DNA of 64,000 bases from Alphaproteobacteria bacterium (GCA_024275895.1 JAJRYE010000046.1:25411-89410); one strand, 5' to 3'. Counted from the first letter of the stretch, positions 4,815 through 7,097 are shown. Notes: generated from the letters alone by a model not told the origin. Made by a program: numbers and translations.

Positions 4815-5459
4815 GTGAAACAATTCAGTGCAGTGCTGTTGGGCAGCGTATTTATTGTAACGGGCTTTGCAATTGCAGCCGAAGCCGAAGCGGCGCAGGC
4901 AAAGAAAAACTGGGCCACATGGGCTGTCGGCGCAAATGCCAACAAACTCAGGCAAAAACCCAAAAACTCCACCCGCGTCGGCTATTATTCCAATGGCCGG
5001 CTATTTGGCAAATGGGTCAAGACTTCGGATAAAAAACTGGTCAGGAACACGACCGGTAAAAAACCCGGCTCCATTATCATTGATACCAAGAAACGCCGCC
5101 TGACCTATACGCTGGCCGGCGGCAAAGCCCTTTCATACGGCATCGGCGTCGGCCGCCCGGGATTCCAGTGGGCCGGCTACCACAAGGTTTCGATGAAAAA
5201 GGAATGGCCCAGTTGGACGCCGCCGGCATCGATGCTCAAGCGCCAGCCCGATTTACCGCGCTTCATGCCCGGTGGCCCCAAAAACCCGCTTGGCGCAAGA
5301 GCCCTGTATCTGGGCAGCAGCATCTACCGCATTCACGGCACCAACAACCACGCATCGATCGGCAAGGCGGTATCCAGCGGCTGCATCCGGATGCATAACA
5401 ATGACGTGAAAGACCTCTACAAAAAAGTCAAGCTTGGTACGCCGGTTTACGTTTTTTAA
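4815..5459 (+). CDS. L,D-transpeptidase (ErfK/YbiS/YcfS/YnhG family), exported
   Basis: Signal peptide; YGIGVGR, WPSWTPP, NPLGARALY, IHGT...SSGCIRM catalytic motif; RBS AGGAGG before GTG. Confidence 0.93.
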   Translation: MKQFSAVLLGSVFIVTGFAIAAEAEAAQAKKNWATWAVGANANKLRQKPKNSTRVGYYSNGRLFGKWVKTSDKKLVRNTTGKKPGSIIIDTKKRRLTYTLAGGKALSYGIGVGRPGFQWAGYHKVSMKKEWPSWTPPASMLKRQPDLPRFMPGGPKNPLGARALYLGSSIYRIHGTNNHASIGKAVSSGCIRMHNNDVKDLYKKVKLGTPVYVF

Positions 5460-6394: not shown

Positions 6395-6541
6395 TGCTCC
6401 GCCGCCTTTCTTGTTCCTTGCCCGGCCAGGTACAATATTCGCCCGAATACATCCTTTGAATATGCGACTTAAAACCAAGCGAAAAATTTTCCCGAACCTG
6501 TTATACAAAGACTTGCAGATGAACATACGCGAACGGGCAAC

Positions 6542-6572
6542 TTGACATATTAAAATATGCGAATATGATAAT
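6542..6572 (+). promoter_or_regulatory. sigma70-like promoter overlapped by an ArsR (BigR/SqrR)-type inverted-repeat operator
   Basis: TTGACA(6542)-N16-TATGAT; inverted repeat CATATT-N10-AATATG (6546-6567), equal to ATTA-N8-GAAT versus the recalled SqrR consensus ATTC-N8-GAAT. Confidence 0.6.
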
Positions 6573-6574
6573 AT

Positions 6575-6788
6575 TTAATTATTCAAATAAGACCTCTAAG
6601 ATCTTAGTGATTCGCGTTTTCAAATTTGCTTGAGTCGTCTTGAAATCTCAGTTGCAAATTGAGTTTTTAGCGTAGCTGTCCATTGTTTTGGTTTATTCGA
6701 ATGCCTCCCGTGACCCTTGGCGCGTTTTACGTACCACAGGGGAACTAACTTAATCCCGCGATGCGTTTGCATTGCGGGATTTTTTTTT
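6575..6788 (+). ncRNA. Candidate ~210-nt small RNA
   Basis: Bounded by the promoter above and a + strand intrinsic terminator; no credible ORF; contains anti-SD-like CCTCCC. Confidence 0.5.
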
Positions 6789-7097
6789 GGGGATGGCGCA
6801 GAAAAGCCGGTGCAACTGCCGGATCAGCGCCAGAGCCTCATCGCTTGCGAGCCGGTAATATACCGATTTACCCTCACGCCGGGTTTCCACCATGCCGTCT
6901 TCGCGCAGCCGGGCCAGTTGCTGCGAGAGCGCCGGCTGGCGCATATTGAGGCTTTTTTCCAATTCACTGACATTGAGCTCGTTTTCCGCCAGCAGACACA
7001 GCACAACCAGCCGGTGCGGATTGGCTATTGCTTTCAAAAAGGCACTGGCTTCCTCGGCGCTGGCCAGCAAATCCTGCAAGCTTGTTTGGTCATCCAT
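6750..7097 (-). CDS. ArsR/SmtB family repressor, BigR/SqrR/SoxR persulfide-sensing type
   Basis: LKAIANPHRLVVLCLL, LSQQLARLR, RREGKSVYYRL and C-terminal LFC; Cys pair typical of BigR/SqrR. Confidence 0.88.
   Translation of the reverse strand: MDDQTSLQDLLASAEEASAFLKAIANPHRLVVLCLLAENELNVSELEKSLNMRQPALSQQLARLREDGMVETRREGKSVYYRLASDEALALIRQLHRLFCAIPKKKSRNANASRD
6752..6788 (+). terminator. Intrinsic terminator oriented on the + strand, overlapping the 3' end of the ArsR gene
   Basis: AATCCCGCGATGC-GTTT-GCATTGCGGGATT 13-bp stem followed by a T-run ending at 6788. Confidence 0.8.

Follow-up and report, generated by a model that had tools for sequence, protein, structure and literature searches.

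A candidate small RNA gene with a BigR/SqrR-type operator-like promoter in an uncultured genus of Hyphomicrobiales

RESULTS

Organization of the locus

The segment considered here occupies positions 6542 to 6788 on the + strand of a 64,000-nucleotide stretch of DNA, hereafter called the window, from an uncultured, soil-type genus of Hyphomicrobiales. It is a candidate small RNA (sRNA) gene, bordered on its left by a znuA-like solute-binding protein gene (Pfam ZnuA) on the - strand and on its right by a convergent gene for an ArsR-family regulator, followed by an alpha/beta hydrolase gene (Table 1). The genus, the sole one of its family in the genome collection, is represented by four species genomes, designated G000 to G003. 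G000 is the genome of the window, with an assembly of 2.47 Mb that is 87% complete.

Table 1. Features of the candidate sRNA locus, with positions counted from the first letter of the window.
Feature	Position	Strand	Remarks
-35 hexamer TTGACA	6542..6547	+	Invariant in 4/4 species
Candidate BigR/SqrR/SoxR-type operator ATATTA-AAATATGC-GAATAT	6547..6566	.	ATT-N10-AAT geometry, in promoter spacer
-10 hexamer TATGAT (TATACT in G002)	6564..6569	+	
Predicted non-coding RNA, ~212 nt	6577..6788	+	No Rfam family at gathering score; no conserved ORF
Conserved seed AUGCCUCCCGUGACCCUUGG, including anti-Shine-Dalgarno CCUCCC (6704-6709)	6701..6720	+	All but one base invariant in 4/4 species
Conserved internal hairpin GU..CCCU.GG...CC..AGGG..AC	6710..6745	+	RNAalifold consensus, pairs kept in 4/4 species
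Convergent two-Cys ArsR-family regulator, HlyU/BigR/SqrR clade (Cys34, Cys100)	6750..7097	-	Pfam HTH_5, 50 bits
Intrinsic terminator: 13-bp stem and 4-nt loop (6752-6781), T-run (6780-6788)	6752..6788	+	

An earlier note made from this DNA had described a TTGACA-N16-TATGAT promoter, which is present where it was reported and, with 11 of 12 matches, is near the sigma-70 consensus. When both strands were scanned with spacings of 16 to 18 nt, the 2.47-Mb G000 assembly held only 11 sites with at least 11 of 12 matches and none with 12 of 12. The inverted repeat CATATT (6546-6551)/AATATG (6562-6567) was likewise found between the hexamers as described, and a tighter palindrome, CATATT-AA-AATATG, lies at 6546-6559. 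The 16-mer ACATATTAWAATATGC occurs in exactly one copy in each of the four genus genomes, and no convincing further copies of the palindrome, such as a regulon would have, were found in G000.

With the start placed 7 to 8 nt after the -10 hexamer and the end at the T-run, the predicted RNA measures about 212 to 213 nt and has an internal hairpin, in agreement with the unit of about 210 nt proposed before. Folding of 6576-6790 gives -61.3 kcal/mol, a large share of which comes from the terminator; shuffled sequences average -47.1 (z = -3.84), and none of 200 shuffles is as stable. The 3' domain consists, in order, of ATGCCTCCCGTGACCCTYGG, the hairpin, GGGGAAC, and the terminator. The CCTCCC motif reported earlier at 6704-6709 is present, and as CCUCCC it is predicted to be unpaired with a probability of at least 0.94 in G000; it is also predicted to be unpaired in G001, with lower values in G003 and G002.

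The terminator has the + strand orientation ascribed to it, with 7 of its 13 pairs G-C and nine T's ending at 6788; no terminator was called on the - strand at 6752-6788. It is kept in G002, where no ArsR gene adjoins it. Covariation, proposed earlier as a check on the structure, was borne out in the terminator stem, where two pairs have changed in a compensatory manner and two more carry one-sided G-U/A-U changes among the four species, but not in the internal hairpin, which shows no compensatory change across the same species. This covariation is thin because the family is known from only four related genomes, and with four sequences the consensus structure of the 5' and middle parts of the RNA is not robust.

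The 15-codon open reading frame (ORF) at 6701-6748 exists as reported, and the judgment that the unit contains no credible protein also stands. The ORF is not conserved, its predicted peptides being 15, 35, 16, and 54 amino acids long and diverging after residue 9, and G000 and G001, although 94% identical in this region, are set apart by a 1-nt indel. The 20 nt upstream of the ATG at 6701 contain no Shine-Dalgarno sequence. Within the first nine codons, G002 has three substitutions, all at third positions of four-fold degenerate codons, a pattern weakly compatible with coding. The lack of ORF conservation supports a non-coding unit.

Conservation and relocation within the genus

A DNA search recovered the element from all four genus genomes and from none of the 37 genomes searched elsewhere in the order. 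All four species conserve the promoter block, the 3' domain, and the terminator. Homologues next to orthologous ArsR genes had been anticipated, and such adjacency was found in G000, G001, and G003, the latter two having the same neighbours around the element as G000, but not in G002. There, the element lies between a rhodanese gene (downstream, same strand) and a heparinase II/III-like gene, and the contig carries the ArsR orthologue at a distance of 11 kb. Compared with the other species, G002 has 36 of 37 nt alignable in the promoter/operator block of the -35 to -10 region and a nearly unchanged 3' domain, while the middle has diverged. Since the unit recurs as a block in two genomic contexts, it is a gene of its own.

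Kinship with the Rfam suhB and alpha-r families, raised in the earlier note, found no support: suhB reached 13.4 bits (E = 7.9) where its gathering score is 41, and no Rfam 15 family matches the region at gathering score. The best other hits at E values up to 10 were ncr1175 (21.2 bits, gathering 60) and anti-hemB (19.9 bits, gathering 49.5), and the confident part of the ncr1175, anti-hemB, and Bp2_287 alignments is the terminator hairpin.

Neither pattern scans of genome and metagenome contigs nor a covariance model disclosed homologues outside the genus. The pattern GCCTCCCGTGACCC-N8-30-GGGGAAC matched 12 loci in genome contigs and 9 in metagenome contigs. In the loci inspected, all but 6 Streptomyces genome loci, the element occurs only in genus members or identical contigs (L022, L027, L028, L038, and L041); the 10 others, from Streptomyces, Actinomycetes, Opitutaceae, and contigs without a label, consist of GC-rich sequence unrelated to it. 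A covariance model of the 3' domain, run against 151 Hyphomicrobiales genomes, returned outside the genus only terminator alignments of at most 36 bits, none of which corresponds to a known Rfam sRNA.

The convergent regulator

The neighbouring gene had been taken to encode a BigR/SqrR-type repressor with a cysteine pair, and comparison with PDB entries supports this: the protein matches HlyU, BigR, and SqrR in the PDB at E values of about 1e-22 to 1e-24, and Cys34 and Cys100, both invariant in five of five aligned sequences, align with the sensor cysteines of HlyU (4k2e), BigR (3pqj), and SqrR. Against the NCBIfam BigR model (NF040642) it scores 104 bits, below the cut-off of 155. By these comparisons, the protein is placed in the BigR/SqrR/HlyU clade, but not as a BigR equivalog.

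This ArsR gene is the only BigR-like gene found in the 87%-complete G000 assembly, in which soxX and soxY also gave no tblastn hit. The species of the genus may thus differ in their capacity for sulfur oxidation, unless the sox genes are simply missing from this incomplete assembly. The other three species carry a second, SoxR-like paralogue (42 to 44% identical). No ATT-N10-AAT site that could serve autoregulation was found upstream of the ArsR gene in any of the four species. For these reasons, and because the ArsR orthologue of G002 is 11 kb from the element, the identity of the protein that binds the operator is inferred, and the neighbouring ArsR is named below as the putative regulator.

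As the earlier note recognized, the terminator overlaps the last codons of the ArsR gene on the opposite strand. In G000, G001, and G003, the last 11 to 13 residues of the regulator are the reverse complement of the sRNA terminator and vary with its compensatory changes, whereas the G002 orthologue ends right after the second Cys and has no C-terminal tail (sequences compared: window 6750-6790 [-], L003 1795-1840, and L021 19467-19781). This comparison suggests that the tail results from overprinting by the terminator and is not an extension with a function of its own.

The candidate operator and its relatives

The candidate operator shares its first base with the end of the -35 hexamer and reaches three bases into the -10 hexamer; a single position within it varies across the four species, and its flanks have diverged. 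In the text of PMC9774250, the SqrR site is given as ATTC-N8-GAAT, and YgaV is said to use ATTC-N8-GAAT at its own promoter (ygaVP), over the recognition sites of RNA polymerase. The proposal that the sRNA promoter contains a BigR/SqrR-type site is supported in part, in that ATTA-N8-GAAT at 6549-6564 shares 7 of 8 bases and the exact spacing of the published SqrR site and in that related sites elsewhere have sulfur-gene neighbourhoods, but the site is one base off, and general enrichment near ArsR homologues was not found: ATT-N10-AAT occurred 5 times around the 26 best ArsR homologues of other genera, against 3.75 expected from shuffles. A form one base different from the candidate operator, ATATTC-AAATATGC-GAATAT, is found in other Hyphomicrobiales. 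No operator sequence was found in passages of papers on Acinetobacter baumannii BigR and Hyphomicrobium SoxR/sHdrR.

A 20-nt degenerate operator pattern, allowing at most two mismatches, was found in 78 of 401 Hyphomicrobiales genomes, with about 101 sites against about 49 for a reversed control (counted by hand). Because the search pattern was derived from this operator, the similarity of the recovered sites is there by construction, and therefore only their gene neighbourhoods are independent evidence. A BigR-like ArsR gene lies within 1.5 kb in 11 of the 26 loci fetched from outside the genus (genera g34, g149, and g44); since 9 of the 11 come from g44, they amount to three genera, with g45 in addition. 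In two genera, the operator-like site precedes the ArsR gene itself by about 45 to 55 bp. Sulfur-related genes adjoin the site in seven loci that are further to, or overlap with, these 11. The immediate neighbours of such sites encode a 430-aa Pyr_redox_2 flavoprotein (divergent from ArsR), DsrE_2 and DsrE proteins, rhodanese-YgaP (two loci), a sulfite-oxidase-type Mo enzyme, and a CcdA/DsbD_TM protein. About 10 of the 26 fetched loci have neighbours that are unrelated or without identification.

The scan around the ArsR homologues also turned up, in two genomes of genus g45, a 24-mer that agrees with the operator of G002 at 20 of 24 positions. On one side of it is a thioredoxin/BigR-like ArsR/YeeE operon and on the other, divergently, a CcdA-like gene, an arrangement resembling soxSR-soxV. 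Within the genus studied here, the sox locus of G002 carries ATATTATAATATTCTAAT, a site matching at 16 of 20 bases, in a divergent spacer. This sox-type locus (L119, G002:C105 3500-8500) encodes a SoxX-like cytochrome, a SoxY that ends in GGCGG, and, divergently, a NapC/NirT-like cytochrome.

Several other elements were observed in the surroundings of the promoter. A second ATT-N10-AAT match, ATTT-AATTATTC-AAAT (6573-6588), which agrees with ATTC-N8-GAAT at 6 of 8 bases, falls at the predicted transcription start and is conserved in G000, G001, and G003, not in G002. Regulation by Zur, an idea suggested by the znuA-like neighbour, was rejected since the canonical Zur box of the genus, AAATGTTATATCATAACGT, which sits in the spacer between the divergent znuA and znuC of the G002 znuA-znuCB locus (L055, G002:C104), differs from the operator. 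The znuA-like gene of the window is 38% identical to the G002 znuA, and no Zur box was seen upstream of it. A block upstream of this gene, TTTGAATATGCGACTTAAAACCAAGCGA (6455-6482), is kept in G000, G001, and G003 and repeats AATATGCGA, the core of the operator's right half; this block may represent a half-site, or else a control element of the znuA-like gene itself.

Complementarity to an importer permease

At 6702-6719, 18 nt of the RNA (UGCCUCCCGUGACCCUUG) form a perfect complement to the ribosome-binding site (RBS) and start of a fused ABC permease gene on contig C91 of G000, across its GGGAGG and ATG. This is the longest exact complementarity of the RNA in the whole genome, followed by two 14-mers. 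The duplex energy of -44.1 kcal/mol ranks first among 15,614 candidate start regions (runner-up -35.5, mean -16.0, standard deviation 4.6). The second-ranked region, at a LivH-like permease on contig C31, was set aside, as it depends on an improbable far-upstream TTG start.

The C91 genes encode an ABC importer of the Fe3+/thiamine/aminoethylphosphonate type, comprising an SBP_bac_6 binding protein, the 569-aa double permease, and a PotA-like ATPase, with a sigma-54 two-component system upstream. G001 and G003 also have the permease site, which in G003 includes one G-U pair, and a second site of 15 bp lies 141 nt upstream of it. Both permease sites are absent from G002, where the best genome-wide match has three mismatches. 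Hfq is encoded in the two near-complete genus genomes.

DISCUSSION

On balance, and with moderate confidence, we favour the reading that 6542-6788 specifies a genus-specific, trans-acting sRNA of about 212 nt, which would be kept off by a BigR/SqrR/SoxR-type repressor, switched on by sulfane sulfur, and directed at the translation of an ABC permease. Of this, the features and their conservation and mobility were computed, as were the lack of ORF conservation, the operator's similarity and genomic associations, and the complementarity to the permease; transcription, the identity of the repressor, the response to sulfide, and the repression of the importer are what we infer. As we envisage it, a dimer of a two-Cys ArsR-family protein, most likely the convergent neighbour (6750-7097), would bind ATATTA-N8-GAATAT and occlude the strong sigma-70 promoter between and over its -35 and -10 hexamers. 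Sulfane sulfur, as persulfide or polysulfide, would bridge the two cysteines and release the repressor, turning the RNA on. The RNA would then present a single-stranded seed, AUGCCUCCC, 5' of the conserved hairpin and upstream of the Rho-independent terminator, and this seed would pair with Shine-Dalgarno regions. In G000 and its two closest relatives, the best predicted target is the RBS and start codon of the fused importer permease, where pairing would block translation.

A bolder form of this proposal, which we offer tentatively as possible rather than probable, is that a persulfide-sensing two-Cys ArsR directly gates the trans-acting sRNA, so that the reactive-sulfur regulon would reach to post-transcriptional silencing of an ABC importer, and that in three species the terminator of the sRNA is in addition written into the last codons of its own repressor. 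In those three species, convergent transcription upon induction, or antisense pairing, could feed back on the repressor mRNA.

The alternatives differ in which part of this scheme they set aside. One retains the RNA and its BigR-type operator as real and assigns their control to the SoxR-like paralogue or another factor, the adjacency of the ArsR gene being inherited synteny. The separation of element and ArsR orthologue in G002, the presence of the paralogue in three species, the 16 of 20 matching bases at the G002 sox locus, and the lack of a similar site before the neighbouring ArsR gene all speak in its favour; however, the G000 assembly, though only 87% complete, has the element without the paralogue, soxX, or soxY, and adjacency to ArsR is maintained in three of four species. 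We regard this alternative as unlikely. We are more doubtful still that the unit is a cis-acting leader or attenuator that originally controlled a downstream rhodanese gene, as it might in G002, and that it survives as an orphaned remnant in G000, G001, and G003. The G002 rhodanese gene does follow on the same strand, about 170 nt past the terminator, and the same operator directly precedes rhodanese-YgaP genes in another genus. Against a leader, three of the four species have no following + strand gene, the next gene being convergent, and keep their rhodanese orthologue elsewhere without the element, and even so the seed, hairpin, and terminator are nearly invariant; moreover, the terminator is strong (13 bp and T9), and such a role would leave the 18-nt match to a distant RBS unexplained.

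Two further readings question the RNA itself, and we give both very little credence. That the unit is a small-protein gene (MPPVTLGA...) or a dual-function RNA could be argued from the ATG and first nine codons, which are kept in all four species, and from the third-position substitutions of G002, but in the conserved hairpin these three positions are unpaired or in loops, the frame and length change after codon 9 even between species that are 94% identical, and a Shine-Dalgarno sequence is lacking from the 20 nt upstream. That there is no gene at all, only a promoter-like sequence that arose by chance in the AT-rich region controlling the divergent znuA-like gene, together with the ArsR gene's own terminator, would accord with the position of the element between these two genes and with the overlap of the hairpin and the ArsR 3' end. 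This reading is strongly disfavoured: promoter, operator, seed, and terminator occur together in G002, away from znuA and ArsR; the T-run is on the + strand only; the G002 ArsR does without the hairpin-encoded tail; and the Zur box of the genus is a different sequence.

The trans-acting sRNA that we favour would have recognizable counterparts among characterized systems. AbcR1 and AbcR2 (alpha-r15), anti-Shine-Dalgarno sRNAs of the Rhizobiales, are about 100 to 200 nt long, with their own promoter and a Rho-independent terminator, and a C/U-rich single-stranded motif in sRNAs of this type pairs with the RBS of ABC-transporter mRNAs. Judged by this description, the candidate resembles them in having its own promoter and terminator, a C/U-rich motif predicted to act on an ABC-transporter RBS, and Hfq in the genus; it differs in being present as a single copy rather than a tandem pair, in having its own seed, AUGCCUCCCGUGACCC, and in its predicted input from a persulfide-type repressor. 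Rfam models including the AbcR-type families gave nothing at E = 10 beyond terminator-driven hits. With MmgR/suhB (alpha-r8, RF00519), the candidate shares the character of an alphaproteobacterial sRNA with a CCUCCC-type loop, but it is not a member of that family, and the suhB alignment rests on the terminator.

To our knowledge, the targets of SqrR/BigR/SoxR-type regulators are protein-coding sulfur genes (sqr, pdo/blh, rhodanese, sox, and tauE). The candidate operator resembles those of the SqrR/BigR/YgaV/SoxR regulons in its ATT-N10-AAT geometry over promoter hexamers and in the neighbouring regulator with both cysteines, but unlike them it would drive a non-coding RNA. SoxR and sHdrR of Hyphomicrobium are described, in the text of the papers concerned, as sulfane-sulfur-responsive repressors (PMC10451225, PMC12423496). 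Literature searches brought up no title or abstract on an sRNA under a SqrR/BigR-type sensor. A new sRNA family with a new regulatory input is a credible interpretation.

An sRNA under a SqrR/BigR/SoxR-type operator would add a post-transcriptional branch to reactive-sulfur signalling and, if the proposal is true, would be the first riboregulatory arm described for this family of regulators, linking sulfur sensing to RNA-based control of a nutrient importer. The locus would also supply a testable circuit composed of an operator, a regulator, a seed, and a target site. Apart from its function, it illustrates how an sRNA gene may relocate as a cassette inside a genus and overprint the 3' end of an adjacent regulator gene.

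Two minor observations concern further matches to the seed in G000. A 13-nt antisense match, GAATGCCTCCCGT, is found on contig C23 (6763-6775), where a spacer that contains a hairpin precedes an AmtB-like gene; the match does not coincide with a start codon. In the importer operon (C91 59016-59260; L016 ~5016-5260), the spacer that separates the permease gene from the binding-protein gene contains GGGTYACGGGAGGCAA twice, 141 nt apart. One copy is at the start of the permease gene, and the upstream one is not followed by a long ORF. G001 and G003 conserve both copies, G002 neither, and the upstream copy could be a second sRNA site or the RBS of a small ORF.
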